In this document: positions 9,795-64,000 of the stretch, piece after piece
Numbering within the stretch: the stretch's first letter is position 1
Layout: each line of letters begins with the position of its first letter
IMG/VR virus record: IMGVR_UViG_3300029953_000001
Source: a virus
Reading direction: 5' to 3' (one strand)
Length of the DNA stretch: 64,000 nt
Position numbers and translations under genes: made by a program
Notes under the pieces: model-generated
Database searches by the model: none
Told to the model about the DNA's origin: nothing
The model's input: only the letters and a program-made list of their open reading frames with translations

Positions 9795-10480
9795 TAGGTG
9801 CTCTGCTCCTTGATAGCAATGGGAGTATCCGCACTGCTGTGATTCATCTGCTCAAGCTCCCACTGAGTCGGGGTTTCGGCCTGATGGACACGGAAGTAGG
9901 GCTGACCCTTGTACATATTCGCCGCGTTCACGTCGTCTACTAAAACAGATACGTACTCCGGTTTTGAGAAAAGACTGTTGATTTTCGTTAACAGCGGCTG
10001 CAACGTGTAAGGGTTGTCATTATTAGCGGTCGTTGGCGGAGTCTGGGCGAAGTTATGATTGTACTGAGCCATATCCTCGTTTTTCTCAATGAGGCAGCGT
10101 AGCTGGTTCATGTAGAAGATTGCGTCTTCATCCCTCTGAAACATATCCTTCATTCGCGTCTTGATGCGACTCATCATGACCATAGGTATGTGGTCGTCAT
10201 TGTTGATGGCGTAATTGAAATGTCCGTTAGGTCCCGGTGACCATAAGTCCTTCTCGAAGGTTGGAGTTAGCGTCTGGTCATTCTGAGTTGTGTAATACTG
10301 CTCCAGCAAACCAGCAGTCTTACGAAGTTGCTGAGCCCGTATTTGGTAGAACTGAGTTATGCCGGGAAAATTCTGCTCACGCGCAGCCACCCATGCTTGG
10401 AATGCATTCCACTGTGTTAGAGTGAAACGCCCCAAGAAGTTGAAAGGGGGATTGGGGTAAGCATATTTGAAAGAGGCCAT
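9794..10480 (-). CDS. structural or assembly protein (228 aa), function unknown
   Basis: ORF translationally coupled within the fiber gene array. Confidence 0.65.
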   Translation of the reverse strand: MASFKYAYPNPPFNFLGRFTLTQWNAFQAWVAAREQNFPGITQFYQIRAQQLRKTAGLLEQYYTTQNDQTLTPTFEKDLWSPGPNGHFNYAINNDDHIPMVMMSRIKTRMKDMFQRDEDAIFYMNQLRCLIEKNEDMAQYNHNFAQTPPTTANNDNPYTLQPLLTKINSLFSKPEYVSVLVDDVNAANMYKGQPYFRVHQAETPTQWELEQMNHSSADTPIAIKEQST

Positions 10481-10483
10481 AGA

Positions 10484-13102
10484 TCACTTCACAATGTGAA
10501 TCAAACCGCCGCTGATGTTGTGGGTGTAAATGCGTGCATTGGGCTTCTCCCCGGCGGCAAAATTCTCATTGCCGATAAAGAGACGTGCCACACGCTGATG
10601 ACCTACACACTGGATACCCACCACCTTTGACCACTCAATCACGTCATCCACATTGGTAAGTACGTGCATTCCTACTTGGATTCCCCCAGCAAATGCCGGA
10701 AGATCGTCCAACCCTACGCCCGGAACTTCCGTCCGTGCGAGGATTTCCTGCGTTGGTACCGGTGTAGACTCAGAGACAATAACAGCGGCACCATTCTCCG
10801 CCTCTAGCCGATAGCAGATTTCCGTGCTGAACTCCATCCACTGCACAGGCAAAAGGCTGTGTTCGGAGTAGTGAACGATGGCATCCAAGTGCGTACCCAC
10901 AGTAACCTCCGCTACCTTCAAGTCTGGTAGAACAAACATTGTCACGGCAGGGCATCCCCCTCCCCCTCCACCACTACCACTCAGAGTGTAGGCTACCGTC
11001 GTAGTATAAGTGCAAGTGAGATTGCTGACATTATCCGTAGCAATGAAGCCAAAATAGTCTCCGGGGGCGGTGTTAACATAGGTATTCGGGTTAAACGTTA
11101 ACTGGAATGTTTGGAGGTACCCGCTAACGCCATTGATAATGGCACTTGCTGAAGTTACAGGGGTGGATGAGCTACCAATTACCGTCTGAGTAGACTGACC
11201 CACATATTGAGTGAAAAAGTTAACCCCCACCGGGTCACTCCCTCCGGCTGTGAACATCTGAGCCGTAAGGGTCATAGACGTTACTGTCGGGGGGATAAGC
11301 GTGAGACTCGGGGTTACCGTCATGCCTACAGCTACCGGAGCCACATAGGAAGAACCTGCGGCGGTGATAGTGCCCACTTGACCGCTTATATATGAGACTG
11401 TATTAGTCACAAAGGTATCGTTGCTCAGGTAGGTAAGGGTGCCATTCACTGTCATGTTCACAGTGAGGGTCTGGTTGGTGGTGGCAGCGGGAGCCGTGAA
11501 TGGTATATTCCAACCTGTGAGCCATCCCGCCGAGTCAAGCACCGGGCTGGGGGTACCAGTGGAAGTAGCACCTGAAATCGTACATGAGGCATTAACGCTG
11601 TTGCCTGTGTTCTTGGCACCCTGCTGCTGGGGAGAGAACGCCTTGTTCAGAGCGACAGACAGCGTATAGCTTCCCCCATCAGCCGGAATGCTGGTCGGCG
11701 AGAGGGAAGCAACCTGAGGCATATTCATATAATCCACTTCGATGTTGAAAGAGACACCACCATTGGTGCCGGACACAGCGAATGTGTCAAACGTGGTGGA
11801 CGCATTGTTGAACCAAGCAATATCATCAGCTTGAACCACGAGGCTGGTGGACAGAACGCGAGAGGAAGATGAGGGGTTAGCCGTGTTCCCGTTGTAGTTG
11901 ACGGTGAAATTGGTACCATCATAGTTCACTCCGAACAACCCTTGATACGCGGTGTTATCCGTGGAGGTCAGAGCAAGAACTGCCTTCGCCGCTGCCGTCT
12001 TGTTCACCGGACTCCCGTTATACGTAGGGAAGGTAAACGTCGGGTTGTTAGGGTCATTATAGAGGTACAGTTTTCCCGTCGTACCCTCAAGCACAGGGCA
12101 ATAGGACTTAGTGGGGTACACGATGCCAGACACGTTGACCGTGAGTGTGATGGGCTGACCCACGACCTGAAGGTTAGTTGCACCACCACCGGGGGTGATA
12201 GTCACGTTGCCGACAGGAGTTGCAGGAGCCGGAGCAGCGATGAGGGTTACCGGGGCAAGTTCGCCCGAACTTGTGGTGATGTGAAACACGCGACCGGAGT
12301 GGTACCAATAATCCCAGTCACCTTCAATGGGATAGACCCCCGCCTGTGAAAAAGTAACCGCTACAGTGCTTGAACCTACATATCCCCCTGAACCGCTATT
12401 CTGAGCAGCCGGGAGAATAGGCAGACCTAACGCAACCGTTTGATTTTGACCAAGGGCGGCTAGGGTGATCCCCTTTCCTGCCCATGTGGGGGAAGCACCC
12501 GTTGCGGAGTTGCCAATACCCCACATGACACCATCCTTATAGGTGATGTTAAAGGTATAGGTACCGGGAGCCGGAACTAGGATACTACCAACAATGCAAC
12601 AGTTGAAATTTGATCCGTAAGGTGGAAAATTGGTGTAGGCGGTCTGTTGACCAGCGGTGTTGAAGCTAGACCACTGGGGACCTGAGCCCCCGGAGTCCCC
12701 CCCAATGTACGCACTGAAAGCGAGGGAATTGTTGGTCTGAGTCGCCGAGGCGGTAGATATGGTACGAATCGTGTTTCCTGATGGGTCGCTGGCATTTTTC
12801 CAGATGTAACCAGCCACGGGACCTGAGGTAGGGGAGTCATTCCACGCATAACATGTAACAACGCTGCCAACCTGTATGATGCCATTGGTTTGCTGCCAGT
12901 TGACCGAGGCGGAGTTGGTGGTGTAGTTGCTACCAGCGATGGTTGCTGTTCCCTGAAGAGTATCTGAACCGCCATTAGTGCCCGTGTATGTAAGCGTGGT
13001 CGAGCCGGTGCCCAAGTTAGTGTCCACGGGTATAGTAACCGGTATGGTCTGGGGGTTAGCCCCACCAATGACGACATTTACTGTTTCGTACTGAGTTCCC
13101 AT
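10484..13102 (-). CDS. tail fiber protein (872 aa) with C-terminal Hint (intein/hedgehog-like) autoprocessing-type domain after a Gly6 linker
   Basis: Fibrous N-terminal 700 aa. Then GGGGGG-CPAVTMFVLPDL ... RLFIGNENFAAGEKPNARIYTHN-ISGGLIHIVK (DNA about 10517..10954): Gly|Cys junction as in hedgehog GCF, intein block-F/G-like NFAAG...THN near the C-terminus. Confidence 0.7.
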   Translation of the reverse strand: MGTQYETVNVVIGGANPQTIPVTIPVDTNLGTGSTTLTYTGTNGGSDTLQGTATIAGSNYTTNSASVNWQQTNGIIQVGSVVTCYAWNDSPTSGPVAGYIWKNASDPSGNTIRTISTASATQTNNSLAFSAYIGGDSGGSGPQWSSFNTAGQQTAYTNFPPYGSNFNCCIVGSILVPAPGTYTFNITYKDGVMWGIGNSATGASPTWAGKGITLAALGQNQTVALGLPILPAAQNSGSGGYVGSSTVAVTFSQAGVYPIEGDWDYWYHSGRVFHITTSSGELAPVTLIAAPAPATPVGNVTITPGGGATNLQVVGQPITLTVNVSGIVYPTKSYCPVLEGTTGKLYLYNDPNNPTFTFPTYNGSPVNKTAAAKAVLALTSTDNTAYQGLFGVNYDGTNFTVNYNGNTANPSSSSRVLSTSLVVQADDIAWFNNASTTFDTFAVSGTNGGVSFNIEVDYMNMPQVASLSPTSIPADGGSYTLSVALNKAFSPQQQGAKNTGNSVNASCTISGATSTGTPSPVLDSAGWLTGWNIPFTAPAATTNQTLTVNMTVNGTLTYLSNDTFVTNTVSYISGQVGTITAAGSSYVAPVAVGMTVTPSLTLIPPTVTSMTLTAQMFTAGGSDPVGVNFFTQYVGQSTQTVIGSSSTPVTSASAIINGVSGYLQTFQLTFNPNTYVNTAPGDYFGFIATDNVSNLTCTYTTTVAYTLSGSGGGGGGCPAVTMFVLPDLKVAEVTVGTHLDAIVHYSEHSLLPVQWMEFSTEICYRLEAENGAAVIVSESTPVPTQEILARTEVPGVGLDDLPAFAGGIQVGMHVLTNVDDVIEWSKVVGIQCVGHQRVARLFIGNENFAAGEKPNARIYTHNISGGLIHIVK

Positions 13103-16459: not shown

Positions 16460-19400
16460 TTAGCTGCTGATAACTACGGTGATGTTCTCGGTGATAGGTT
16501 GCGTCGGTTGAGAACCCGGACCTAATGTACTGATACCCAAATTGTCCACAACCCGCAGAGCTACTGCGATGGTGTAGGTACCTATAGAGGGCGGGGTGCT
16601 GATGGGTACAGTAAAGCCTCCAATAGGCGTAAGACTCTGATTCACATCCGGTACGTTTGAAGGTGAACCCGTGAGATTGTACGCCAGCACCCGGTTGGTT
16701 GGAGACACAGTGATAAATGATGCCAGACCGCTGGGAACCGTAACCGAATCAACGTAGTAGTTAGCCGGGGCGTGGAAAAGCTGCGGTGAGGACATGAGAG
16801 AGTTTGGCGTCTTGGAAGCAACTACAGCACTTGACAGGCTGATAGCCCACGTGTAGGGAGAGAAAGCCACAGAGATGTAGCTCTGAGCCACAACCGTAAC
16901 CTGAAGCTGACCCGTCACAGTGGTGGAGTTTGCAGCCGAGTCCGTGACCACAACAGTAACGTTGCAGTTATATGGTGTGGTGTTTGCCGCGAACTGAGCA
17001 ACCGTAATCTGCAAGGCAGCGGTGGATGTGCCGTTGTTGATGGCAACGAAGCGGGAGTCGCTCACACCCGATATGTTGTAGGTGTAAGGAGCGTCACCGC
17101 CAGAGACAGTGAGGGGTAGCGATAGAGTTTGGGTGACAATGTACTCGCTGACCGACACCGGAACCGTGGTGCCGTTTGCCTTGAGGGCGGAAAATACTTC
17201 GGAGAGGGTAAGGCTGTCCGGGAAACTTACGTTATTGAAGGACAGTGTGTCGGTACCTGCACCGGTCGGGAAGTAGTCGTAGCTCATAGTGAACCCATCT
17301 GGAGTCACGCTGCTGTTGCCCGTGGTGGGCTGTCCGCCAATGGTTAGGGTGGGGTTACCCAGAGTTGCAGTACCCAACGTGTTCTGCAATAGGGGGAGAC
17401 CGGTGTCACCCGGCTGGAACCCAGTGTACTGAGCCGAGATAATGGAATTGTTGTTGACCACACGATATTGCGTGCCAATCGTTGCCGTCGCCCCAACGTG
17501 AGCCGGGGCGATAATGACAGCGGCTTGAGCACGGACGGCGAGATTCACAACAACGCTTGCCTGAGTGCCAAACGTGACCGAGGTCGCGGTGATGGTAATT
17601 GGGGTTGAGGAGACCACACCAGTCGGAGTGCCTTGCAGGTATACGCGGGTGCCCGGAGCAGACGACAGGGTGACGCCAGCCGGGAGACCCGTGGCTGTCC
17701 AGTTTGAGATGAGGTCGGCGTCAACATAGTAACTGTTGACCGGAATCAACCGGTTGACATAGACGTAAGCCGGAATATTGTTATCCAAGATGTGAGTTGG
17801 CTGAGTCGTAGATTGAGCAACCTTTACAGTGATAGGGGTTGCCGCTGACTGAACGCTGTTCTTGTCCGTAACCACAACCAACACAGTGTACGAACCTGTC
17901 GTGGAGGTTGAGGAGGAGAAGGCCGAAAACCCTCCGATGCTTACCCCCGTACTGATGGTAGGGAGCGTTGTACCGCTCTGAATGCTGAAGGAATACGGAG
18001 CAGTGCCGCCTCCAGCAATGAGGGGGTATGCCCAGCTATAAGCACCTATGGCATCCGCTGTCAAAGTGTTTAGGTCAAGGTTGATAGCGTCAGTGAAAGC
18101 AAGAGCAACCACCGGAGTTCCCGTTCCTCCACCACCAACATTCAAACTGAAACGCTGTGCTGTGCTCACAGTGGCATTGACCGAGTTGACAATACCCGCA
18201 AGCTGGAACTTGAAGCTGTAACCAGCAGAGGTTGTCGGAGTACCTTCAAGTAGGAGGATGCAGTCAGCACCAGCACCCGCGACCGTGTTACCGCTGGCGA
18301 ACGTCATACCAGCCGGGAGAACGCCGGGGCCGATGAGGCTGGCGGTGCAAGCCGCGTTGGGAGCGTTGGTCAACTGAATCGTGCCGTTGTTAAGAAGAGC
18401 GACACAGTAGTATTGGCCTGAGCCCGGAGTGTAAGGCGTACTGATAACAGGGTCGGGGTAGCCACTCGCGAGGGGGGTGAACGTCCAAAGGGTTGGAGAT
18501 GTAGGATGACCGTTTGTGTTGACGGAGTAGGCACCTAGGGTGTATTGACCTGAACCCTGCTGCTGAACTGTGATAGTCATTGGCAGAGAGGCGATATGAC
18601 CCACGGAGTCAACCACTTTAACCGTGACAGTAAAAACCCCGTTCGCAGTCGGCGTGGCAACCAGCAAAGGTCCGTAGCAAACCGCCCCCGGAAGAGTGTT
18701 GCTTGCGGTGGGGTCAACGTAGAACTTATAACGCTCGTCGGTATCCAAGCCGTTTGCGTTAGAGGGTACACCACCAGTAGCTGTCAGCGTGATTGCAATG
18801 TTCTGCGGGTAGAGCGACGGGTACACTGTAGTATTCGGTGCGTTGAGGAAGGACAGTATAGCCGGAGTCACCCCTGCAACCACGGACATCTGGGTTGGGC
18901 TGACAATCGCCAACCCGGTACCGATGATACCGTCGTCGGTGAAGCTATTCAAGGTGTAAGGGGACTGACCCCCATAGACTGGAACAGCCAACTTGAACTG
19001 TTCCCCCGCGATGATGAGTGGCTGGTTCAACAGACCGTAGGAGAGCTTGGCTGGGGAGAGCAGGATGCTGTAGGTGGCTGATGCCTTAGCTCCGATGGCG
19101 TCCGTAACCTGAACTGTGAAGGTATAGGTCTTGAGGAAGTCAGTAGTCGAATTGTAAGTGCAGGGTACACCACCGAGCGTCCCGGAGTTGGCATCAATGG
19201 CGAGACCAATAGGAGCCGAACCAGCAACAATAGCCCATGTGTATGGAGCCAAGCCCCCCGTGTTCTGGATAACGATGGGCTGTGGGCTGTTGGGATTGGT
19301 GTAGTTCTCATAGGGGGTACCAACGGTAGCAGAGGGCAGAGTCGTGGTGGTAATCGCCAAGTCGGTCGGTATAAGGAAAGTCAACGTGGTCTCAGCGATG

Positions 19401-22400
19401 TACGCAGGGCTGCTGGCGTCCATGACAGCGAAGACGACAGTGAATGTGCCAAGCTGGGTTGGAGTGCCGCTGATGGTACCATCAACGTTCATCTTCAAGC
19501 CCGGAGGCATACCTTCGGTGTACCAACTGTAGTTGGTATTGCCTCCCGTCGCTTGCATCTTGAATTCAGCCATCGGCTTGCCAACGTACGAGTTCGAGGG
19601 CAGAGTCGTAGTGGTAATCTGCACCGGTACCGAAGAGGTGGCGGGGTTGACTTCAAGAATGTACGTTGGTTCGATGAGTTCCTTTGCATGGGGACGACCC
19701 TGCATCGGGAACACGTCGAGTGCCATGGTGCTCAACAGGGAGCTTGCATTCGCAAATCGCGAAGTCGCAACCATGAGCTTGAGTTCATTTGTAATCTCGT
19801 CACGAGCGATAGAGCGAACAACCACTTCATACGCCTGTGGTGTCACAGTGCCTGTGGAGGCGTTCGTAATTTCAAAGCCAGCATTACCCCCAATGCCTAG
19901 CGTGCCAGTGAGGGCTCCCTGAGCGGCTGCGGTCGGGTTGAACTGCTGGTCGATAACATAAACCTGCTGTGTCAACTGGCGACGGAGCTTGACCGGTGGG
20001 TTAGCCGTTCCGAAGTCGTTCTGCGTCTGGATGACAATGTTCTGGGCACCAGCCGTGGTGAAGGACTTGGCGACGGTGCGAGTGCTGAGGGGCAACCAAC
20101 CCGTGGACGTGTTGTCTGGGAAGATAACCTGCCATGCGCTGGCTCCAGCATAGTTGGCATTCAACGTGATGTTGAGCGTCTGACCCAGCAACAGGTTCGT
20201 GTTGTCAAACGTGACGTTGGTAGCCAACAGGGCAGTCGGGAATGTGTGGCTAGAGTCCCATGGGTTAGAGTTGAGGGCAACCGTGAAGTCACTCGACAAC
20301 GCCACCATGTTCATGGAGTAGTCGCCAGAGACCAAGGTCTCTTCGAAGACACGGGCGGAGACCGTACCGCCATTGTTCAACCCTGTATCAAATACAGTTA
20401 TAGGAGTTCCACTACCCGGAGGCGTCTGAAGCGTGATGTTCCAACCTTTGTATGCGGTGTACGCTCCGCTCACAGAATACGGTTGCCAGTTGGCCGTCAG
20501 GTGGAAAGTTTCATCAATGACAGCGATGGTTGGAGCCGGGAGGAGGTTCGTGGCCGAGGCGATAGAGCTTGAAATGACAATCAACGGTACTGAGTACGCA
20601 TTGCCGTAGAAGCTGGTGCCATAGACGCTGTAGACGGCGGAACCAACCTGCTGCACTGATGCCGAACCTGCACCAGTCACAGTGCGAATTGGAGTCGGGG
20701 ATGGAATCTCCGCGAGAAACAGTCCCGTGGGTGTGCCGGAGATGCCCCATGCGATAGTGAACGATGTGTTGTCCGGTATCGAAATAGCGGTGGAAGTTGG
20801 ATTGGTAATCTGCAACGGAATGGCGACAGCCGCCACCGTCATGGTGATGACATCACTGTAGCTGGTTTGGTAACCAAATGCCGATGCGGCGACAACAAAC
20901 TTGTAGGTTCCCGGTGTGAGTGCGTTACCCACTATCTGATTGGAGCTATTGATATACAAACCATCGGGAGCACCGAGAACCCCTGAACCGAAGACTGGGT
21001 CGCCAACCAACTCGAACGTGGCACTGACCGGGGTCGATGATAATTGAATCGGGGGGATGGGGATGCCCGTGGAAGAGTTGATGGTGGTAGGGGTACCCAC
21101 AATATCCAGAGGAGCGGGACCATCGCACTTGAACAGTACCTGTGCGTAGCCTTGACGACCCGGAGGGCTCCCGGAGTTAGTCGCTGCAATGGTGAGCGTC
21201 CACTTCTGCCCAATCTGCCCGTTAGCCGGGAAGTGGAAGGTGACTGTGGTGGTGGGTGTCCCTGAACTGATAGTCAGACCAGTGTTGGTTACAGTCGCAG
21301 GGGATTCCAGCGAAGATGCAGCGACGGCATTCACCGTGAAGATGAGGCTTTCGGCTGGGTTGAACCCATCAGGGGAGGAAAGGGTGTAAGTGACTGTAGT
21401 CCCCGCCGCACCGACCGCGTAATCAGGTGTCCCTGATGTTGTCGCTAGTCCAATCTTGATAGCCGAAGATGACAGCCACGAGGTGTTACTGGTAGATACC
21501 TCATTAAAGTTAATGATCTTGAGACCATTGTTGACTGGAAGCCCGTTGTTATCGAACACCTGAAGGTTCACAGATGCGGGGGCATTACCGTAGATGCTGT
21601 AGGTGGCAAACTTGTTAGTGCTATTTCCGCCGCCGCCCGAGTTCAAGGACAAGGGTCCGGTGGAAGCCCAGTAATAAGTTAGGGGCTGAGCAACTGTTGC
21701 ACCGAGTGATTGCAACGTACCCAACAGAACGTCAATCTGTGCATCCACATGCAGCAGGTTGCTCACAGTGTCGTAGTAGGCACCAGCCGCGAAGTCCAAG
21801 GTACCAGCGGCCTGACTCTGAGAGCTTACCGATAGTGTAAGTTGGTAAGCACGGGCGGGGGTATCGTAGAATGAACCCGGCTGGTATGCAAGAATCGTGA
21901 TAGGCACAGCGACGGGCGACTGAGCGAAGCTGGGAGCGGTTCCGTTTAGCTGGAGACCACCAACAAGGTCAGTTGAGGTGAAAGGTGTGCCGGAAAAGTG
22001 AGGAGGCGATACACGCAGTGCAAGCTTGGTCTCATCCGATGTGACGAACTCCAGTCCGGCTGGAAGGCTGGAAGGCAGGATGAAGCTGATGCCGGTTTGC
22101 GGGGAGTTGAACAGACCGTAACCTTGAATAAGAACATCGGCTACCGTGCTGTCATAGGACGGGATAAGTAGGGTGGTTCCATTAACCACTGGGTTGCTTG
22201 GATTGGCGGCAACGTAGAAGGGAGTGCGGACTTCCAAGTAAATCGGAAAGTTGGTGGTGCTTACACCATCAGTGACGGAAACAAAGAACTCGTAGGGGTC
22301 TTGCTGATATTGTGCGCCTGAGAACGTGATGGCACATACAGCCCCGTTGGGAGAAACATTAATCCACGAGGGTGCGCTTCCGCCAAGAGACCAAGTGATA

Positions 22401-22546
22401 GCGCCCACCTGTCCTGATACAGTCAAGGAACCAAGGGTGTCCGAGGCGAGTGATGCGACACGGACGGCCAGACCACTGGCGTTCTGTGCCAGTGGCATGA
22501 CTGAGTTGGCATTGTTGGCGAAATTTGTAGTGAATGTAAGGCTCAT
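16460..22546 (-). CDS. giant adhesin-like fiber protein (2028 aa) with many Ig-like (He_PIG/BIG-type) repeats
   Basis: 6.1 kb ORF. Many repeats with the LP.G(L/M)..... G.ISGTPT signature (e.g. YSWYTEGMPPGLKMNVDGTISGTPTQLG, YTWAIVAGSAPIGLAIDANSGTLGGVP). Confidence 0.8.
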   Translation of the reverse strand: MSLTFTTNFANNANSVMPLAQNASGLAVRVASLASDTLGSLTVSGQVGAITWSLGGSAPSWINVSPNGAVCAITFSGAQYQQDPYEFFVSVTDGVSTTNFPIYLEVRTPFYVAANPSNPVVNGTTLLIPSYDSTVADVLIQGYGLFNSPQTGISFILPSSLPAGLEFVTSDETKLALRVSPPHFSGTPFTSTDLVGGLQLNGTAPSFAQSPVAVPITILAYQPGSFYDTPARAYQLTLSVSSQSQAAGTLDFAAGAYYDTVSNLLHVDAQIDVLLGTLQSLGATVAQPLTYYWASTGPLSLNSGGGGNSTNKFATYSIYGNAPASVNLQVFDNNGLPVNNGLKIINFNEVSTSNTSWLSSSAIKIGLATTSGTPDYAVGAAGTTVTYTLSSPDGFNPAESLIFTVNAVAASSLESPATVTNTGLTISSGTPTTTVTFHFPANGQIGQKWTLTIAATNSGSPPGRQGYAQVLFKCDGPAPLDIVGTPTTINSSTGIPIPPIQLSSTPVSATFELVGDPVFGSGVLGAPDGLYINSSNQIVGNALTPGTYKFVVAASAFGYQTSYSDVITMTVAAVAIPLQITNPTSTAISIPDNTSFTIAWGISGTPTGLFLAEIPSPTPIRTVTGAGSASVQQVGSAVYSVYGTSFYGNAYSVPLIVISSSIASATNLLPAPTIAVIDETFHLTANWQPYSVSGAYTAYKGWNITLQTPPGSGTPITVFDTGLNNGGTVSARVFEETLVSGDYSMNMVALSSDFTVALNSNPWDSSHTFPTALLATNVTFDNTNLLLGQTLNITLNANYAGASAWQVIFPDNTSTGWLPLSTRTVAKSFTTAGAQNIVIQTQNDFGTANPPVKLRRQLTQQVYVIDQQFNPTAAAQGALTGTLGIGGNAGFEITNASTGTVTPQAYEVVVRSIARDEITNELKLMVATSRFANASSLLSTMALDVFPMQGRPHAKELIEPTYILEVNPATSSVPVQITTTTLPSNSYVGKPMAEFKMQATGGNTNYSWYTEGMPPGLKMNVDGTISGTPTQLGTFTVVFAVMDASSPAYIAETTLTFLIPTDLAITTTTLPSATVGTPYENYTNPNSPQPIVIQNTGGLAPYTWAIVAGSAPIGLAIDANSGTLGGVPCTYNSTTDFLKTYTFTVQVTDAIGAKASATYSILLSPAKLSYGLLNQPLIIAGEQFKLAVPVYGGQSPYTLNSFTDDGIIGTGLAIVSPTQMSVVAGVTPAILSFLNAPNTTVYPSLYPQNIAITLTATGGVPSNANGLDTDERYKFYVDPTASNTLPGAVCYGPLLVATPTANGVFTVTVKVVDSVGHIASLPMTITVQQQGSGQYTLGAYSVNTNGHPTSPTLWTFTPLASGYPDPVISTPYTPGSGQYYCVALLNNGTIQLTNAPNAACTASLIGPGVLPAGMTFASGNTVAGAGADCILLLEGTPTTSAGYSFKFQLAGIVNSVNATVSTAQRFSLNVGGGGTGTPVVALAFTDAINLDLNTLTADAIGAYSWAYPLIAGGGTAPYSFSIQSGTTLPTISTGVSIGGFSAFSSSTSTTGSYTVLVVVTDKNSVQSAATPITVKVAQSTTQPTHILDNNIPAYVYVNRLIPVNSYYVDADLISNWTATGLPAGVTLSSAPGTRVYLQGTPTGVVSSTPITITATSVTFGTQASVVVNLAVRAQAAVIIAPAHVGATATIGTQYRVVNNNSIISAQYTGFQPGDTGLPLLQNTLGTATLGNPTLTIGGQPTTGNSSVTPDGFTMSYDYFPTGAGTDTLSFNNVSFPDSLTLSEVFSALKANGTTVPVSVSEYIVTQTLSLPLTVSGGDAPYTYNISGVSDSRFVAINNGTSTAALQITVAQFAANTTPYNCNVTVVVTDSAANSTTVTGQLQVTVVAQSYISVAFSPYTWAISLSSAVVASKTPNSLMSSPQLFHAPANYYVDSVTVPSGLASFITVSPTNRVLAYNLTGSPSNVPDVNQSLTPIGGFTVPISTPPSIGTYTIAVALRVVDNLGISTLGPGSQPTQPITENITVVISS

Positions 22547-51069: not shown

Positions 51070-51075
51070 GTGCAT

Positions 51076-51675
51076 ATGACTATCGAAGAAAAGGCATTAG
51101 AAGGCATATCAATCGCGACTGCCCCCCTTCGTTGGGCAATGGATTTGCTGAAACTCATTTTCCTGTTCTGTTTTTTCGCGGTCATTGTCATCAGCTATCC
51201 TCTATACCTCTATTTCAGCGGCGACCCTGTAAGTGCTAATTCCTTGATATATTCAGGGCTAGTAACTCTACTTATTTTCACCATGATTTATACCCCCGGA
51301 TACATGGTTTTCTTGGTGATCCTGTCCTTTGTTTTCTATGGCTGGTGTGGCTCCTATAATGAGGGGAATAATGTTGTCTGTGACTTCATGGTACGGGGTT
51401 GGAACTTCGAGATTGTCACCCTCATAAGCTTATTGATAGGTATTGCACAGAGGTTTATTTTTAAAAGCCCTGCTGAACCTAGGGATACTCGTCCTCCTGC
51501 GGTACGTTTAGCTGAATGCATGAACCGGAGAAGAGAAGGTCTGGTTCTTACCGAAATGCTGAACATGGGACCTGAGCAACTCAAAGCGATGAAGACCCTT
51601 TACGGAGAAAACCCCCTTATGTGGCCTCTCGACTCGCTAGGACAGGGTGACTGGCGTCCCTACCGGAAGGGTTAG
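51076..51675 (+). CDS. integral membrane protein (about 199 aa, 4 predicted TM helices), opposite-strand moron inside tail operon
   Basis: Track ORF 51070..51675 begins at GTG that abuts the -10; ATG 51076 preferred. Hydrophobic stretches LLKLIFLFCFFAVIVISYPLYLYF, LVTLLIFTMIYTPGYMVFLVILSFVFY, IVTLISLLIGIA. Confidence 0.65.
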   Translation: MTIEEKALEGISIATAPLRWAMDLLKLIFLFCFFAVIVISYPLYLYFSGDPVSANSLIYSGLVTLLIFTMIYTPGYMVFLVILSFVFYGWCGSYNEGNNVVCDFMVRGWNFEIVTLISLLIGIAQRFIFKSPAEPRDTRPPAVRLAECMNRRREGLVLTEMLNMGPEQLKAMKTLYGENPLMWPLDSLGQGDWRPYRKG

Positions 51676-57210: not shown

Positions 57211-60200
57211 ATGTCAATTAAGGCCCTGCAATCTTACACGTTCCATTCGAAGTATGCCCGTTACAACCCTGAGCTAAAACGACGCGATACATGGTCAGAA
57301 TCAAATGATCGTGTGCTCAACATGCACCTGAGTCGCTATCCACAAATTGCCGAGGAACTGAACTGGGCATTCGAACAATCCAAAGCCAAGCGGGTACTTG
57401 GGAGCCAACGGGCTCTCCAGTATGCTGGTACACCCGTGCTCCGCAAGCACGCTCGTGTTTACAATTGCACTGTCTCCTACTGCGACCGTCTCCGCTTCTT
57501 CCAAGAATCCCTATGGTTATTGCTGTGTGGCTCTGGTGTAGGGTTCTCCGTTCAGAAGCACCACGTTGCCAAACTGCCTGACTTCCTCGAAGGCCGTCAG
57601 TTGGGCGTCCCACAGCGTGAAGTTGAGTTCTACATCCCCGATGACATCGAGGGATGGGCTGATGCTCTCGGCAACCTGCTTGCCACGTACTTCCCTCACC
57701 CGGATTACCCGGAGTGTGCGGGTGCGAACATCAAGTTCAATTACAGCCTCATCCGTCCGAAGGGCTCCAAGCTTTCGTCCGGTGTAGGTAAGGCACCCGG
57801 CCCCGAACCACTGGCTAAGTCACTGGAAGCCATCCGTGGACTCCTCGACCGCTGCTTGGCTGATGGACAGGCTCGTCTCCGTTCCATCGACGCCTACGAC
57901 GTTGTGATGCACGCCAGCGATGCCGTGCTCTCAGGTGGCGTCCGTCGCTCAGCGACCATCTGCATCTTCTCGCCGGACGATGATTTGATGGCACGTGCCA
58001 AAATTGGCGACTGGTACTACACCAACCCGCAGCGTGGCCGTTCCAACAACTCCGCGATGCTCGTGCGTAGCGCAACCAGCCGTGAAGACTTTCATGGACT
58101 AATGGGGTGGGTTAAGCAGTTTGGGGAACCGGGCTTTGTGTGGTCGGACTCCACTGAGATGATGTTTAATCCTTGTTTTCATCCTGAGGAAAGAATCTCC
58201 ACCATAAATGGGATGGAACGGCTGATTGATATGTTCCATACAGGTCAACCTAATCAGGTAGCTTATGATTCCCGTGCAGGTAAGTCCGATGAGCTTGACC
58301 TCAATCGCAAGGGGATTCAACTGTCCTCGGCATCAAAGGTCAAACTTACCCAAACTCAGGCCCCCTTGTTTCAGTTGAACACTGAGCATGGCCACACCCT
58401 CAGGGTCACCGAGAACCACGAATTTCCGACCTTACGGGGGAGGCTGAAGCTAAGCTCTCTGGTACCCGGAGATACACTCCTACTCCCCTCGGCGGAACTC
58501 CCCTTTGGTAAGGACGGCTCGTTCGCCGCAGGTTTGGTACTCGGACTTATCACCGGGGACGGCTTCGTCAGTGGTCATCAAGCCTTCGTGGACGTGTGGA
58601 AAGCTGACTTCGATGTCTTAGACACGGTAAAGGAGTACATTCACTCGCTTATCGAACAGGTTCCTAGCAACGCCAATGGTGTCCGTGAGTATACCCAGTT
58701 GGATTGGGTGAAGCAGGGGGAGGACAAACGCAGGATAGGCGGACTGCGTCTCTATCGGTTCTTGAGGGAGAACTTGAACATCGAAGACCCGGCGACGATC
58801 AAGGATAATATTCCTGAGTGTGTATGGCGTGGGTGTCGGGAGATGGTGGTGGGTTACCTACAAGGACTTATGTTTGCAGACGGTGGCTTGAATCTGAGTG
58901 ACCACAAAAAAGTACCTACTTTCTCTTGGCGACTTAACCAGAGCAATGAAGCCCTGCTGGTAGAGGTGCAGAGGTTGTTCGCGATGTTCGCGGTGGTTTC
59001 GAGGGTAACTCCGCGTAGAAAGGCGGGGCGAACCCTTCTTCCCGATGGGCGCGGTGGCTCTAAACTCTATGCTACCAAAGACAACTTCGAACTCATTTTG
59101 AATCGACCTAATAGTATTAGGGCATACGAGGTCGTAGGGTGTTTCGGTCGCAAGAAGGATATCCTTCAGTCTCTGATGGGGTACTGTGGGACAAATTGTC
59201 GTAAACCGGAACGATTCATTACCAAAGTAAAATCCATCACACCTTGTGGTGTGTCCGATGTGTACTGCCTTACTCAATACACTTCCAACACCGTCATAGC
59301 AAATGGTTTGGTTACGGGTCAGTGTGTTGAAATTGGCATGTACCCGGTCGATGTCACCACTGGTCTCAGCGGATGGGCGTTCTGCAATCTCTGCGAAATC
59401 AATGGCAAGAAGTGCAAGACCAAGGAAGACTTCGCTATCGCTGCTAGGGCTGCTGCCATCATCGGCACGGCACAGGCTGGCTACACCGACTTCGAATACC
59501 TTGGTCAGACTACCAAGAACATCGCCGACCGTGAGGCCCTTCTGGGTGTCAGCATCACCGGCATGATGGACTCGCCGGAGATTCTCTTCGACCCTAAAAT
59601 TCAGCGTGAGATGGCACAGCTTGTTGTCGCCACCAACAAGGAAATCGCGGCGAAGATTGGTATCCGTCAGGCAGCACGTTGCACTTGCGTGAAGCCAGCC
59701 GGAACCACGTCCTGCATCCTCGGCACATCGAGCGGTATTCACGCTCACCACTCCAAGCGTTACATCCGCCGCGTTCAAGCCAACATGCTGGAAGCTCCAT
59801 ACCAGTTCTTGGCTGAGAAGAACCCGCGTGCGGTGGAGAAGAGCGTGTGGTCGAAGAATGGCACCGACTCGGTGATTGCATTTTGTATCGAGACGGCTGA
59901 AGGTGCTCGTACCCGCAAGGATATGACCGCCATCAAGCTGCTTGAGCATGTACGTTTGACGCAGAACAACTGGGTGGAAGCTGGCCGCAATGCTGAGCTT
60001 TGCACACAACCCTATCTTCGTCACAACGTGTCGAACACCATCAACGTCCGCCCTGATGAATGGGACGAGGTTGAAGCCTACATCTACGAGCACCGTCAGG
60101 ATTTCGCGGGTGTGTCCTTGCTTTCTAGCACGGGTGACCTTGATTATCCTCAGGCTCCCTTCAGTGCCATTCACACCCCGGCTGAAATCGTCAAGCTGTA

Positions 60201-60633
60201 TGGCGACGGAAGCTTGATGGCTTCGGGTCTTATTGTCGATGGCCTCGCGGCGTTCGATAACAACCTATGGTTGGCTTGCGACTACGTGAACGGTGTCAAC
60301 AAGCTGGAGTGCCCGGAACCGGTGGCAGTTGTTGACGATAACGGTAATGAGATTCACCCCACGGAAATCGAGATGGCTGAACGTGAGGAAGTCTTCAAGT
60401 GTGCTGTGAAGCGTGACTGGATTCGTCGTGCTCATCAGTTCTCTGACCGCTACTTCGAGGGCGACCGTAAGCTCATGAGTTACTGCCTGAAGGAAGTTCA
60501 CAACTGGAAGTATTGGTGCGACCTTCAGCGTGAGTACGTCGATGTAGACTACAAAGACCTCATCGAAGAAGAAGACAACACCAAGATTCAGGACACGGTA
60601 GCTTGCGCTGGAGGTGTGTGTAGTTTTATGTAG
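57211..60633 (+). CDS. nrdJ: class II (adenosylcobalamin-dependent, NrdJ-like) ribonucleotide reductase, interrupted by an in-frame intein
   Basis: Extein joins to ...MMFNP|CVEIGMY (NPCxEI thiyl-radical loop) with downstream FCNL (cf. the RTPR loop TNPCGEISLANGEPCNL, recalled from memory). 757 aa extein after removing the 383 aa intein. Confidence 0.8.
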   Translation: MSIKALQSYTFHSKYARYNPELKRRDTWSESNDRVLNMHLSRYPQIAEELNWAFEQSKAKRVLGSQRALQYAGTPVLRKHARVYNCTVSYCDRLRFFQESLWLLLCGSGVGFSVQKHHVAKLPDFLEGRQLGVPQREVEFYIPDDIEGWADALGNLLATYFPHPDYPECAGANIKFNYSLIRPKGSKLSSGVGKAPGPEPLAKSLEAIRGLLDRCLADGQARLRSIDAYDVVMHASDAVLSGGVRRSATICIFSPDDDLMARAKIGDWYYTNPQRGRSNNSAMLVRSATSREDFHGLMGWVKQFGEPGFVWSDSTEMMFNPCFHPEERISTINGMERLIDMFHTGQPNQVAYDSRAGKSDELDLNRKGIQLSSASKVKLTQTQAPLFQLNTEHGHTLRVTENHEFPTLRGRLKLSSLVPGDTLLLPSAELPFGKDGSFAAGLVLGLITGDGFVSGHQAFVDVWKADFDVLDTVKEYIHSLIEQVPSNANGVREYTQLDWVKQGEDKRRIGGLRLYRFLRENLNIEDPATIKDNIPECVWRGCREMVVGYLQGLMFADGGLNLSDHKKVPTFSWRLNQSNEALLVEVQRLFAMFAVVSRVTPRRKAGRTLLPDGRGGSKLYATKDNFELILNRPNSIRAYEVVGCFGRKKDILQSLMGYCGTNCRKPERFITKVKSITPCGVSDVYCLTQYTSNTVIANGLVTGQCVEIGMYPVDVTTGLSGWAFCNLCEINGKKCKTKEDFAIAARAAAIIGTAQAGYTDFEYLGQTTKNIADREALLGVSITGMMDSPEILFDPKIQREMAQLVVATNKEIAAKIGIRQAARCTCVKPAGTTSCILGTSSGIHAHHSKRYIRRVQANMLEAPYQFLAEKNPRAVEKSVWSKNGTDSVIAFCIETAEGARTRKDMTAIKLLEHVRLTQNNWVEAGRNAELCTQPYLRHNVSNTINVRPDEWDEVEAYIYEHRQDFAGVSLLSSTGDLDYPQAPFSAIHTPAEIVKLYGDGSLMASGLIVDGLAAFDNNLWLACDYVNGVNKLECPEPVAVVDDNGNEIHPTEIEMAEREEVFKCAVKRDWIRRAHQFSDRYFEGDRKLMSYCLKEVHNWKYWCDLQREYVDVDYKDLIEEEDNTKIQDTVACAGGVCSFM
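58174..59322 (+). mobile_element. intein (383 aa) with LAGLIDADG homing endonuclease domain, inserted at the catalytic Cys of NrdJ; C-terminus ...IANGLVTGQ|C
   Basis: Block A CFHPEERISTINGM. Two LAGLIDADG motifs (AAGLVLGLITGDGFV, VVGYLQGLMFADGGL). Block G-like VIANGLVTGQ followed by Cys+1. Terminal Gly-Gln instead of His-Asn. Confidence 0.8.
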
Positions 60634-61757: not shown

Positions 61758-62564
61758 ATGAAGATAACGTTCAACAACAAGACTCATTGGCGGTCAGACC
61801 ACATCCGGGCGTTCATTGCACATGAACTGAAGGATGAGCGTCCCGACCTGTGCAAGCGTGGAGCCCCGGCCCTGAAGGTGAAGGTCACCTACACCCGACG
61901 TGCTGGTTCCTCATATAGCTCCGGCTGTGCCTACCTCAACTCAAACTGGATGAACATCCGACTCAGCAAGCATACCCCGGACAAGGTGGAACTTGGTCAT
62001 GTCATTGCTCATGAGCTTGCCCACACCCGTGGGATGAACCATGATAAGATGCGTGGGAACTCCCGCTACAGCCGTGTCGGCAGCTATCGTGAAGTCCATG
62101 CTTGGGCCAACGACCTTCCCCTCGAACGAGTGGAGAAGAAGTCGAGGAAGAAGCCGGTTGACCTGAAGCTTACTCACGCTCAGAAGATGCTCAAGGCTGC
62201 ACTGACGCGGGAGAAGCGTGCCATCACCCTCCGCAAGAAATGGGCGGCTAAGGTGAAGTATTACACCAAGAAAGGGGAGACTCCCCGAGTCGTCAACTCT
62301 AACCCCTTCCGTCAAACCCTCGGTGAGTGGGTCGAAGCACGAGGCTTTCGACTGGAGGGTAGTGTAGGCGACTACGAGGTCTCCGCACCGGATGGCTTCA
62401 ACTTGGGCGATGGAACCCACAGCCGGTTATGCACAAACGCTGCTGATGTTCGGACTATGGTAGATTCGTTCTGCCTTCAACTCTGCTCGGAAGGCTGTGA
62501 CTGCATGGAAAACAACACTGACCAAACTACGACCGACGACGGTATACTGGAGGTAACATGCTAA
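61758..62564 (+). CDS. putative zinc metalloprotease-like protein with metzincin motif HELAHTRGMNH (268 aa from ATG 61758; track ORF starts 61713)
   Basis: HExxHxxGxxH perfectly matched. Very basic middle region. C-terminal Cys cluster CTNAADVRTMVDSFCLQLCSEGCDC. Confidence 0.55.
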   Translation: MKITFNNKTHWRSDHIRAFIAHELKDERPDLCKRGAPALKVKVTYTRRAGSSYSSGCAYLNSNWMNIRLSKHTPDKVELGHVIAHELAHTRGMNHDKMRGNSRYSRVGSYREVHAWANDLPLERVEKKSRKKPVDLKLTHAQKMLKAALTREKRAITLRKKWAAKVKYYTKKGETPRVVNSNPFRQTLGEWVEARGFRLEGSVGDYEVSAPDGFNLGDGTHSRLCTNAADVRTMVDSFCLQLCSEGCDCMENNTDQTTTDDGILEVTC

Positions 62565-62857
62565 AACCTCGCTTTGACGAGACCATGAAGGGTCATCTCA
62601 AGACCCTCAGCCGTAGCAAGCCCACCTTGAAGTGCTCCAAGCACACCAAGTACAACCCTGCTCATGGTCGGGGAGCCATCACTGGCTCATGTAAAGGGTG
62701 CGAGGCTGCACTGGAAGCCTATGAGGCGTTCATCGGGCTACGACAAGCCGTTGCCAAATACCTGACGTTGATTGAACCATACGAGACCGCTAAACCCCGG
62801 AGTAAGCAGTTGGTATCTGCCACTTCGACTACTCTACCTTATTTGCTGAAGATGTAG
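62558..62857 (+). CDS. small Cys-rich hypothetical protein (99 aa)
   Basis: ORF overlapping upstream stop; CSKH...C.GC cluster. Confidence 0.45.
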   Translation: MLKPRFDETMKGHLKTLSRSKPTLKCSKHTKYNPAHGRGAITGSCKGCEAALEAYEAFIGLRQAVAKYLTLIEPYETAKPRSKQLVSATSTTLPYLLKM

Positions 62858-62885
62858 TACACTCACCCGGACAGGAGTCTGACTG

Positions 62886-63488
62886 ATGACATTTGATAGG
62901 TACGGACGTAAACTGAAGAGACGCCGGACGTGGAAGGCTCTACCCCTACTCTGGATTGGTGCAGCAGTGGTAGGAGCCGCCATTGCCGCCCCGACATGCA
63001 GCAAGTTCATCCCGACCACGACCGTGACCAAGGTGAAGAACCGTGTGAGTAAGACCACGGCAGACGCTTGGGCGAAGTGGCGTATCGCCCACCCCAACTG
63101 GAAGCCCAATCCCAAGGTCGTTAGACCAAAGTACAAGATGACGACTCAGGAAGCTGTAGCTAAGGTAGAGTTCGCTTGCCAAGCTACTATTCTCGATGTG
63201 ACCCCGCCAGAGATTCAACTGGATACGGTCTCGCCGCCCACCATTGAGTTGGCCCTGACCCCGGTCGAGCCTCCGCCTGTCACCCCTGATGTGGTAACCG
63301 ACACTACGCCGGACACGCCTCCGGACACGCCCCTGACGCCTGTGCTGTTCACTGCACTGTCCTCACCGCCCACGCTCATCCCCTCGTCGCCCCTTGCCCC
63401 CACTCCTGAGCCGGGAAGCCTGTGGCTGATGGGCACTGGTTTGCTCTTCGTCGCAGCCGGTGTGCAGTATCAGAAAAGAAAAGTGTAG
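62886..63488 (+). CDS. PEP-CTERM sorting-domain protein (200 aa): N-terminal signal/TM, Pro/Thr-rich linker, C-terminal PEP + TM + basic tail
   Basis: C-terminus TPEPGSLWLMGTGLLFVAAGVQYQKRKV matches the exosortase recognition domain. N-terminus KALPLLWIGAAVVGAAIAAP. Linker PPVTPDVVTDTTPDTPPDTPLTP. Confidence 0.7.
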   Translation: MTFDRYGRKLKRRRTWKALPLLWIGAAVVGAAIAAPTCSKFIPTTTVTKVKNRVSKTTADAWAKWRIAHPNWKPNPKVVRPKYKMTTQEAVAKVEFACQATILDVTPPEIQLDTVSPPTIELALTPVEPPPVTPDVVTDTTPDTPPDTPLTPVLFTALSSPPTLIPSSPLAPTPEPGSLWLMGTGLLFVAAGVQYQKRKV

Positions 63489-63778
63489 CGTTTTTCTGAC
63501 AACCGTGTATTATAGGTTCATACCACATTGGCTTAGCAAGCTACAGCTTCGAGGTATCAGACTTACGGGGTCGATGTGGAGTAAGGCCCCGGAAACCCTT
63601 TGTGGAAGTAGAAGCTGGCACTGTCAGGGCACCGGGGACAGCAAACCCCTCAAGCCGACGAAAGACTCAGGGAACGGTAGCAACCCGGACTGACCCACAA
63701 AGCTAATTGAAGAAATTCGAAAAATAGTTGTTGCAGTTTTCCCAATTTGTAGTATCTTATTCAAGAGGACATTTTCAC

Positions 63779-63907
63779 ATGAACAGCACTCGCTCCAACT
63801 CGACCGTAGCCGTAGCCCCCGCAGTAGCGGTCGGCGTCGTGCGTGTCGCAGCCGCCGCTGAAGATTGCGCGGGAGGCGAGATGCTGGCCTTGGGTGGTGG
63901 AAACTAA
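63779..63907 (+). CDS. possible small Ala/Val-rich ORF (42 aa), not in track
   Basis: ATG with AGAGGA RBS, preceded by TGTAGTATC promoter-like element, followed by terminator at 63931. Confidence 0.25.
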   Translation: MNSTRSNSTVAVAPAVAVGVVRVAAAAEDCAGGEMLALGGGN

Positions 63908-63930
63908 CTAAGTTAGAATCCAAACCAACC

Positions 63931-63961
63931 GAGGCCACCCTAACCGGGTGGCTTTCTTATT
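63931..63961 (+). terminator. rho-independent terminator
   Basis: AGGCCACCC-TAACC-GGGTGGCTT followed by TCTTATTT. Confidence 0.7.
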
Positions 63962-64000
63962 TGGTGGCAACAAATGCGGGGGTAGATTAGCGGCTAAATC

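Follow-up and report, generated by a model that had tools for sequence, protein, structure and literature searches.

Can a phage supply cargo for the exosortase/PEP-CTERM sorting system of its host, and from where would it obtain such cargo? Many bacteria of soils, sediments and biofilms use exosortase/PEP-CTERM sorting, a process whose mechanism is poorly understood; to our knowledge, it has yet to be established what the acceptor is, where the cargo ends up and what most of the cargo proteins do. The question is raised by an open reading frame (ORF) near the end of a 64,000-nt stretch of viral DNA (IMG/VR record IMGVR_UViG_3300029953_000001, hereafter the window), for which the original prediction had proposed a phage-encoded PEP-CTERM protein with a signal or transmembrane (TM) N-terminus, a Pro/Thr-rich linker and a C-terminal sorting motif.

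The gene and its predicted product

The features of the locus are as follows.

62873..62877, + strand: Shine-Dalgarno sequence AGGAG, 8 nt 5' of the ATG, read from the sequence
62886..63488, + strand: coding sequence of the candidate 200-aa phage PEP-CTERM protein, stop codon included (ORF list, HMMs, homologues)
62886..62990, + strand: predicted signal peptide, residues 1-35 (hydropathy, charge, alignment)
62991..63185, + strand: conserved basic domain (head), residues 36-100 (invariant columns, model, identities, dN/dS)
63186..63398, + strand: acidic Pro/Thr-rich linker, residues 101-171, variable in sequence and length (charge, model)
63399..63485, + strand: putative PEP-CTERM sorting module, residues 172-200 (HMMs, alignment, model)
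63405-63413, + strand: P174-E175-P176, the PEP motif inside the sorting module

The ORF is as originally described, and the C-terminus quoted for it, ...TPEPGSLWLMGTGLLFVAAGVQYQKRKV, is correct. It starts with an ATG at 62886, a choice backed by the N-terminus MxxDRYGRKLKRR, which is kept in the aligned phage homologues P0002-P0005. Hydropathy and charge analysis bore out the signal N-terminus and the Pro/Thr linker. The n-region of the signal peptide (residues 1-17) has a net charge of +7 and is followed by an h-region of 18 residues (18-35) closing with A-I-A/A (the slash marking the putative cut), a small-residue -3/-1 site that aligns with V-H-A/S of the bacterial homologues. Cleavage probably occurs after A-I-A, as judged by the rule of thumb that combines hydropathy, charge and the residues at -3 and -1.

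The head domain is strongly basic (net +10, pI 10.3), while the linker has a net charge of -9 and consists to 52% of Pro, Thr and Ser (18 Pro and 14 Thr among 71 residues); its length ranges from 66 to 157 residues across the family. Beyond the PEP motif the tail comprises a hydrophobic stretch (residues 179-195) and the basic residues K197-R198-K199, ends in QKRKV and carries a net charge of +3. Hydropathy over the whole protein revealed two hydrophobic segments only, at 21-35 and 179-193, and no other TM segment. AlphaFold modelling from the alignment of the family (mean pLDDT 65) places helices at residues 13-34, 56-68, 87-101 and 178-199, with a pLDDT of 91 for the last of them, block means of about 75-90 over residues 51-90 and values below 60 in the linker, which is predicted to be disordered.

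Evidence for a PEP-CTERM tail

PEP-CTERM modules are defined by a PEP motif, a TM segment and a basic cluster, with fewer than 10 residues beyond the module in 87% of cases (PMC1569441). Features given in that study are found here as well, namely a near-invariant PEP, a TM helix and a basic end at the extreme C-terminus, a signal peptide (recognised heuristically) and no internal TM segment; 24 residues follow the E-P pair and the basic cluster closes the protein. PEP-CTERM proteins are typically rich in Thr, Ser and Asn, poor in basic residues and very low in Cys (about 0.4%; PMC1569441). Compared with this, the mature part of the window protein (Thr 16.9%, Ser 5.1%, Asn 2.2%, Lys 7.4%, Cys 1.5%) conforms in its linker, where Thr is high, whereas the Lys-rich two-Cys head differs.

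The window protein scored 22.1 bits against PF07589 (gathering score 20.7, E 1.6e-4). The TIGR02595 search, which the original prediction had named as its check, was borderline, with 16.0 bits lying exactly on the cutoff of 16 (E 0.016; aligned positions 1-17 of 24). The remaining NCBIfam matches were PEP-CTERM families without exception, each aligned at its C-terminal end. From 5.8 billion proteins, 40 homologues were retrieved, 33 of which were taken into an alignment and into per-sequence HMM scans; 30 of the 33 matched PF07589 independently and 24 of the 33 matched TIGR02595. The invariant positions of this alignment include E175, P176 and L181; conservation is at least 90% for P174, S178 and G185, while the surrounding linker varies freely. 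A scan of all ORFs of the window with a tail HMM detected such a tail in 62886..63488 alone, an observation that is merely supportive since the HMM was built from the protein's own family. The resemblance goes beyond chance, and what settles the PEP-CTERM call, as far as sequence can, is the family-wide invariant E-P pair together with the individual HMM matches of the homologues.

These observations also bear on a simpler reading, according to which the protein would be a plain bitopic inner-membrane protein, its C-terminal helix a permanent anchor handled by no exosortase, and its function that of a tethered periplasmic exclusion or signalling factor. The marginal HMM scores of the single window sequence could be read in this way, as could the basic, Cys-containing head, atypical of PEP-CTERM cargo (PMC1569441), and the fact that the host exosortase is deduced indirectly (see below). 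However, a plain anchor would not need a PEP, and the conservation of the E-P pair and of P174, S178 and G185 among freely varying flanks, the individual PF07589 matches and the uniformly PEP-CTERM, C-terminally aligned NCBIfam matches all argue against it. Moreover, three further phage proteins, whose heads are divergent or unrelated, bear the same tail, as described further on. We therefore regard a plain anchor as unlikely and retain the PEP-CTERM assignment in what follows.

A conserved head domain with two cysteines

The protein belongs to a sizeable family. The identical 200-aa protein was found on at least 22 contigs, matches between the window protein and bacterial members reached E values of 1e-25 to 1e-38, and an exhaustive HMMER search of 1.84 billion proteins yielded 207 family representatives at E<=1e-3, mostly of 180-250 aa and matched end to end. 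Members share a head of about 65 aa with two Cys, a Pro-rich linker and a PEP-CTERM tail, and are recognised by the signature AW-x2-WR-x2-HPNWKPNP. The invariant head residues are C38, T58, W62, W65, R66, H69, P70, W72-K73-P74-N75, R80 and C98, and the window protein has every invariant column of the family. C38 and C98 are probably joined by a disulfide.

No Pfam, NCBIfam, PHROG or PDB match was obtained for the head domain, and a PHROGs scan with the whole protein found no family either. A Foldseek search of the AlphaFold model against BFVD and PDB returned noise (E>=1), and a domain-only profile run against the index of 5.8 billion proteins retrieved eight fragments and nothing more. Judging from these sequence comparisons, the family appears to consist of uncharacterised small envelope proteins with a PEP-CTERM tail and a head that is undescribed.

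Conservation is distributed unevenly along the protein. Among close phage copies identity amounts to 86-92% in the head, 55-69% in the tail and 42-54% in the linker, and with respect to bacterial copies it is 62-68% in the head and about 20% in the linker. Between the window gene and the phage homologue P0004, the head had the lowest dN/dS (0.09), followed by the tail (0.28) and the linker (0.43), values that are approximate because dS is about 1. The gene is under purifying selection, which is strongest on the head domain.

This pattern is informative about the possibility that the protein serves as an exosortase decoy, in which case the phage would flood the enzyme with substrate, host PEP-CTERM proteins would stay unsorted, the capsule or floc matrix would be weakened and phage release and spread made easier, the head being incidental. 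Purifying selection on the tail would suit such a function, and so would the several different PEP-CTERM cargo genes carried by phages in which no sortase was detected. On the other hand, the head is the most constrained part of the protein, well above the tail in identity and with the lowest dN/dS, and it retains all residues that are invariant in the cellular family, which argues that an activity of the head itself is selected. A decoy is thus rather improbable, slightly more so than the plain anchor, and we favour a cargo protein whose head matters.

Phage genome context

The gene had been called a phage copy, and its surroundings substantiate this. Genes of the window code for a Baseplate_J protein (E 3.8e-10), giant proteins with Ig domains, a tail-tube-initiator-like protein and a transglycosylase-type virion protein; they also specify, for replication, a DnaB-like helicase, a loader resembling DnaC and a class II RNR that contains an intein. 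The baseplate wedge had its sole strong match, out of 50,697 deposited phages, in Tunturiibacter phage Tunturi_5 (46.8% identity over 93% of the length), which was also the only deposited phage matched by the DnaB-like helicase (23.5% identity). Tunturi_5 is a cultured jumbo myovirus of 309 kb with 43 tRNAs, originating from tundra soil (PMC11924767). The gene order of the window parallels the region of its genome from about 174 to 219 kb, both sharing the succession of baseplate, giant proteins, tail fibre, tape measure, initiator, DnaC loader and RNR. Contigs with the identical protein reach 431,749 bp, and those bearing a copy of 65% identity measure 405-435 kb.

The gene has a metallopeptidase-like gene and that of the RNR as its neighbours, and an array of 14 tRNAs starts directly 3' of it. 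The upstream metallopeptidase-like gene was considered as a functional partner and dismissed, given that it is absent from the arrangement in the phage locus L025. Scanning IMG/VR by protein pattern and DNA motif revealed no relative, and tblastn of the protein against the 50,697 deposited phages gave no match, even though gp97 of Tunturi_5 is a remote relative (see below). No integrase was seen in the DNA examined. This, together with the location of the gene in the replication and nucleotide module of a Tunturi_5-like jumbo phage, makes lysogeny, one of the settings originally envisaged for the protein, the least likely one.

Cellular relatives and origin of the gene

A scan of GTDB with one genome per species identified relatives at 16 loci, with 35-44% identity to the phage protein, and all 16 belong to Acidobacteriaceae/Granulicella MAGs. 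The host-range clue that the gene had been expected to give was borne out, and it agrees with the Tunturiibacter host of Tunturi_5; the gene independently points to the host family that is also indicated by the relationship with this phage. Two metagenome contigs bring the cellular loci to 18. Their gene order is RF1, CoA-binding protein, DsbD, the gene, RarA/MgsA, SpoU methylase and phosphoglucomutase, with dsbD upstream in 16 of 18 loci and rarA (18/18), spoU (16/18) and pgm (13/18) downstream. The two loci that gave no dsbD match are L016 and L008, the latter a 5-kb contig with little upstream DNA. Since the gene occupies the same chromosomal site in all 18 loci, the cellular form is a vertically inherited single-copy gene and not prophage cargo.

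A head-domain tree unites the phage copies (that of the window and P0002-P0005) in one clade, and they have an order of their own, i.e., helicase, loader, RNR, small ORFs, the gene and the tRNA array. The place after RNR is kept between phage copies that are merely 43-65% identical. Considering the single phage clade, the constant position and the constraint on the head, the phage gene is an old, maintained acquisition from the host lineage.

Could the gene instead be bacterial, either through misassembly or as a region of a bacterial contig? Close cellular homologues exist and IMG/VR holds no relative, which might raise such a suspicion. Against it, six independent assemblies from peat and bog samples (ENA, JGI, Logan) carry the identical gene and agree on its flanks, with 0.5 kb downstream identical in 6/6 and 1.9 kb upstream identical in 5/6 (93% in the sixth, L006). 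Furthermore, the divergent phages P0004 and P0005 have the gene in the same module, the phage copies form their own clade at no more than the 35-44% identity to bacterial genome copies given above, and the bacterial flanking genes dsbD and rarA are absent. Given the concordance of the six assemblies, misassembly is rejected, and it is improbable in the extreme that the gene is not phage-encoded. What we consider probable is that the window belongs to a jumbo myovirus of about 430 kb infecting Acidobacteriaceae, and that the gene is real, expressed-looking and a host-derived PEP-CTERM cargo gene.

The two contexts are also relevant to a role in lysis. A unimolecular spanin would bridge the periplasm from an N-terminal outer-membrane lipoprotein signal to a C-terminal inner-membrane helix, as in T1 gp11, a u-spanin with a similar layout; the N-terminal signal, early Cys, extended linker and C-terminal TM of the window protein superficially recall this arrangement. 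However, no lipobox ([LVI][ASTVI][GAS]C) is present, the residues before C38 being A-A-P-T (S-A-T/S-P-T in bacteria), and a polar gap follows the h-region. The presence of a second invariant Cys points to a disulfide and away from lipidation, no endolysin or holin adjoins the gene, whose neighbours are the metallopeptidase-like and RNR genes, and the cellular homologues are single-copy genes in a housekeeping context, not prophage lysis genes. Because of the missing lipobox and the non-lysis gene context this identity is rejected, the chance that the protein is a spanin being very slim. The reading as host-derived PEP-CTERM cargo is therefore carried forward.

Exosortase and the sorting pathway

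PEP-CTERM proteins strictly co-occur with EpsH/exosortase, and the organisms concerned possess an outer membrane along with EPS genes (PMC1569441). No exosortase-like polytopic protein was found in the window, in the related phage loci or in the complete Tunturi_5 genome, where the two genuine polytopic proteins, gp204 and gp227 (an O-acetyltransferase), gave no exosortase match. Nor was an exosortase detected in about 300 kb of Acidobacteriaceae DNA, i.e., the gene flanks of the 18 loci, as is to be expected given that this DNA covers the surroundings of the gene alone; across all these phage and bacterial sequences, polytopic ORFs instead matched DsbD, NagX, an amino-acid transporter, an acyltransferase and a TIGR00297 protein. 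A literature search on exosortase in Acidobacteria, Terriglobia, Granulicella and Acidobacteriaceae returned nothing usable. From the conserved PEP-CTERM orthologues in the 18 loci and the co-occurrence rule (PMC1569441), we infer that the Acidobacteriaceae host would have an exosortase. As no phage exosortase was detected, the phages, as far as seen, carry the cargo and depend on the host for its sorting.

Further PEP-CTERM proteins in the phage group

The family gene does not stand alone. In locus L025 the ORF that follows the family member P0005 spans 10077-10832 and encodes 251 aa, with a signal peptide of its own, a body that is unrelated and a PEP-CTERM tail; it scored 18.5 bits against PF07589, and hhalign matched it to the family in the tail alone. 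When all ORFs of the whole Tunturi_5 genome (PP885688.1) were scanned with the tail HMM, two annotated hypothetical proteins emerged, each with a signal peptide and each passing both curated models: gp97 (PF07589 26.4 bits, TIGR02595 18.4) and gp179 (24.3 and 19.2, respectively). The paper on the Tunturi phages mentions neither PEP-CTERM nor gp97 or gp179 (PMC11924767).

The head of gp179 is unrelated. For gp97, a full-length profile comparison with the family gave a probability of 96.6% with both Cys aligned. A first domain-only profile comparison was not significant, and a broader domain-only profile, made from 165 domains of the exhaustive search, aligned end to end with residues 30-90 of gp97 (27 bits). 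The head of gp97 alone matched P0109, a family representative with the bridging motif AWAAWGKAHPNYHP whose contig is phage-like, at 60 bits. On these profile matches gp97 is a divergent member of the same head-domain family, placed among helicase genes and not after RNR.

A 31-aa consensus PEP-CTERM tail found no match in the phage collection, and this search is silent on the base rate since it missed both verified Tunturi_5 tails as well. The PEP-CTERM trait thus recurs in this phage group, in the family gene, the second gene of L025, gp97 and gp179, a finding that is new here.

Possible role during infection

Judging from its position, the gene would be transcribed with the replication and nucleotide-metabolism block during infection. 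The product would be exported by Sec through its N-terminal signal peptide, probably cut after A-I-A, and the C-terminal helix would serve as a transient inner-membrane anchor with KRK in the cytoplasm and PEP at the periplasmic face. The basic head, predicted to contain two helices, would fold in the periplasm, presumably with the C38-C98 disulfide formed. A host exosortase would then recognise the PEP, remove the anchor and pass the protein on to the envelope or EPS layer, the phage providing the cargo alone and the host the sorting machinery. Regarding its purpose, we can only conjecture that the phage protein might replace or out-compete the host orthologue and so alter the capsule/EPS-associated surface during infection, be it to stop other phages from adsorbing or to keep the envelope working until lysis. 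Superinfection exclusion, receptor masking and interaction with the biofilm matrix are the roles that the original prediction had put forward as possible. We know of little biochemical proof of exosortase cleavage for any PEP-CTERM protein.

A wider claim, which we put forward tentatively and would not call probable, is that Acidobacteriaceae jumbo phages systematically hijack the host exosortase, carrying several PEP-CTERM cargo genes and no sortase and thereby re-decorating the capsule or EPS. If true, it could mean that superinfection is blocked or that progeny are kept from being trapped on debris; it would constitute the first viral exploitation of exosortase sorting and a handle on the fate of exosortase substrates.

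Phages often borrow host surface-sorting signals, so that to a specialist the finding is unsurprising in principle. Llp of T5 and Cor of phi80 and N15, for instance, are phage lipoproteins that use the Lol pathway and have a demonstrated receptor-blocking function. Like them, the window protein is a small secreted phage cargo relying on a host sorting pathway, without machinery of its own; unlike them, it would take a putative exosortase route, the Lol pathway and receptor blocking being theirs.

Compared with the cellular PEP-CTERM/exosortase system (EpsH, XrtA; PMC1569441), the protein shares the PEP-TM-basic end, the signal peptide, the lack of an internal TM, a Thr-rich low-complexity region, an N-terminal part without known homology and a didermic, EPS-producing host lineage of soil and peat. 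It departs from that system in being virus-encoded, apparently without an exosortase of its own, in having a strongly basic head with two conserved Cys, and in that its cellular orthologue is single-copy and syntenic rather than a fast-turnover paralogue. According to the account of Gao et al. (2018) given in PMC12642866, proteins such as the flocculation-associated PepA of Zoogloea resiniphila (NF033554) act with EPS in cell aggregation. PepA is likewise a small secreted PEP-CTERM protein, and the window protein gave a weak, tail-only match to its HMM (14 bits against a cutoff of 80), with no homology beyond the tail; the aggregation role is known for proteins of the PepA kind. Further counterparts are gp97 and gp179 of Tunturi_5, which belong to the same phage group and host family and combine a signal peptide with a PEP-CTERM tail over the curated thresholds; gp97 has the two-Cys head domain in addition, while being very divergent and differently placed in the genome.

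Our literature search brought up no tailed phage described as carrying PEP-CTERM cargo, and the only report found of PEP-CTERM on a virus-like mobile element concerns HOG10, a PEP-CTERM-domain protein of the Dehalococcoides IME1 element (bioRxiv 10.64898/2026.09.15.751708). In contrast to the present case, IME1 is an integrative element with features of filamentous or budding viruses in a host without a classical outer membrane, HOG10 belongs to an unrelated family, and the report made no argument from host orthologues or exosortase. The window protein is accordingly a member of the PEP-CTERM class, as its family indicates, with an undescribed head and in an unreported viral context.

That a host-derived cargo is kept under strong purifying selection by phages that appear to bring no sortase suggests that a step at the envelope or EPS is important during infection. 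In practical terms, the gene can be used as a host-assignment marker, pointing to Acidobacteriaceae for an uncultured peat phage of about 430 kb that has no IMG/VR relative. It may also provide a useful entry into exosortase biology and into the interactions between phages and Acidobacteria, a dominant and genetically under-studied soil phylum. Since Tunturi_5, with two such genes, and its Tunturiibacter host are both in culture, viral use of the pathway is open to experiment. The carriers to which a systematic hijack would refer are the family, found in at least two phage subclades, the second gene of L025, and gp97 and gp179 of Tunturi_5.

PEP-CTERM Proteins of Related Phages

The PEP-CTERM gene of the window, whose product joins a conserved two-Cys head domain to a PEP-CTERM tail, is not the only gene of the phage group encoding such a tail. 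The following proteins were found in a related phage (loci L025 and L026) and in the complete genome of Tunturi_5, a cultured Tunturiibacter jumbo myovirus:

L025 10077-10832 (+) and L026 10688-11443: second PEP-CTERM-tailed secreted protein of 251 aa, directly downstream of the family gene
Tunturi_5 PP885688.1 75107-75703 (L031 26107-26703): gp97, with signal peptide and PEP-CTERM
Tunturi_5 PP885688.1 125878-126516 (L032 27878-28516): gp179, with signal peptide and PEP-CTERM

The body of the 251-aa protein is unrelated to the family protein, and no counterpart of the L025 protein was found within the 64-kb window. Both gp97 and gp179, labelled "hypothetical proteins" and not mentioned in the Tunturi_5 publication, score above both the Pfam and the TIGRFAM cutoffs, and gp97 belongs, as a remote relative, to the family of the window protein.

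Gene Neighborhood in Bacteria and Phages

In 16 of the 18 cellular Acidobacteriaceae loci (L007-L024), the orthologue lies approximately 0.4 kb downstream of dsbD, encoding the thiol:disulfide interchange protein, as in the following example:

L024 5535-7715: dsbD
L024 8143-8733: cellular orthologue of the family gene

The two Cys of the head domain are invariant in the cellular orthologue. Together with the adjacency to dsbD, they may point to a functional connection with disulfide chemistry in the periplasm, or the arrangement could merely be synteny inherited within one family.

The genes preceding the PEP-CTERM gene in the window include:

57211-60633 (+): class II ribonucleotide reductase (RNR) with intein, 1140 aa
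61713-62564 (+): metallopeptidase-like protein of 283 aa, with YgjP-like metallopeptidase domain and HExxH motif
62558-62857 (+): Cys-rich protein of 99 aa

The last two genes overlap each other and are codirectional, just 5' of the PEP-CTERM gene. The 283-aa protein carries the HExxH motif as VIAHELAHT and its YgjP-like domain was detected at 28 bits vs. 26, while no match was obtained for the 99-aa protein. A functional link of this pair to the PEP-CTERM gene is doubtful, since an ORF pair (198 and 104 aa), likened to it by arrangement only, precedes the family gene in the related phage L027, but no such pair is found in L025. Further upstream, the RNR intein of the window contains a LAGLIDADG homing-endonuclease domain, and the RNR gene is followed by a small ORF with a NUMOD3 motif. 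The RNR orthologue of L025 (1118 aa) also carries an intein, whereas that of L027 (760 aa) lacks it, suggesting that the intein is mobile and polymorphic within the phage group.

Other Proteins of the Window

Three additional ORFs were considered:

563-2248 (-): 561-aa protein with a weak portal-like region and a C-terminal NUDIX domain
16460-22546 (-): 2028-aa ORF between the baseplate and tail-fibre genes
51070-51675 (+): 201-aa polytopic membrane ORF with 3-4 predicted TM segments, between the tail and replication modules

The 201-aa ORF, the sole polytopic membrane ORF of the window, had no match in Pfam, and its small size rules out an exosortase; it may encode a holin-like protein or another type of membrane protein. 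The NUDIX domain of the 561-aa protein was recognized with an E-value of 2e-11, and several giant proteins of Tunturi_5 are annotated as "MutT/NUDIX hydrolase". By position alone, the 2028-aa ORF was likened to the giant Tunturi_5 protein annotated as "regulator of chromosome condensation". The 561-aa and 2028-aa proteins of the window are probably virion-associated.

Conserved Elements and tRNA Array Downstream

The region downstream of the PEP-CTERM gene comprises:

~63612-63697 (+), L025 ~10884-10970: non-coding block of ~85 nt
63780-63908 (+): 42-aa ORF, MNSTRSNSTVAVAPAVAVGVVRVAAAAEDCAGGEMLALGGGN, immediately upstream of the tRNA array
63931-63955: GC-rich terminator-like hairpin of 10 bp, downstream of the 42-aa ORF and almost invariant
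63976-64000, running on beyond the window: start of the phage tRNA array (L001 11091-16092; L025 11248-12707)

The ~85-nt block is ~85% identical between the phages, while the adjoining proteins are only ~43% identical there. A long-range stem is predicted, with two compensatory pair changes in a comparison of just two divergent sequences; the block is a candidate structured RNA. It had no match in Rfam, even at E<=1, and neither IMG/VR nor the JGI metagenome collection yielded additional copies; L027 lacks it and has an 85-aa ORF in its place.

An ORF of 42-43 aa occupies the matching position in L027 and L025, with the common core ..EDC.G.EGTMA..GW... Val, Ala, Gly, Asp, Glu, and Cys make up 27 of the 42 residues in the window, and these are exactly the amino acids of the downstream tRNAs. 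Conservation at third codon positions is unusually high, and folding of the region is strong. Candidate readings are a small protein, an RNA element or, for the downstream tRNAs, a leader-peptide attenuator.

ARAGORN detected no tRNA in the window, because the first gene of the array, tRNA-Val(tac), is truncated by the window's end. At locus L001, the array holds 14 tRNAs, arranged Val, Gly, Ala, Gly, Cys, Ala, Asp, Asp, Val, Ala, Ala, Glu, Glu, Gly. With the exception of Cys, they read codons starting with G. The core order Val-Gly-Ala-Gly-Cys-Asp-Glu-Gly is retained in L025, a distant relative.
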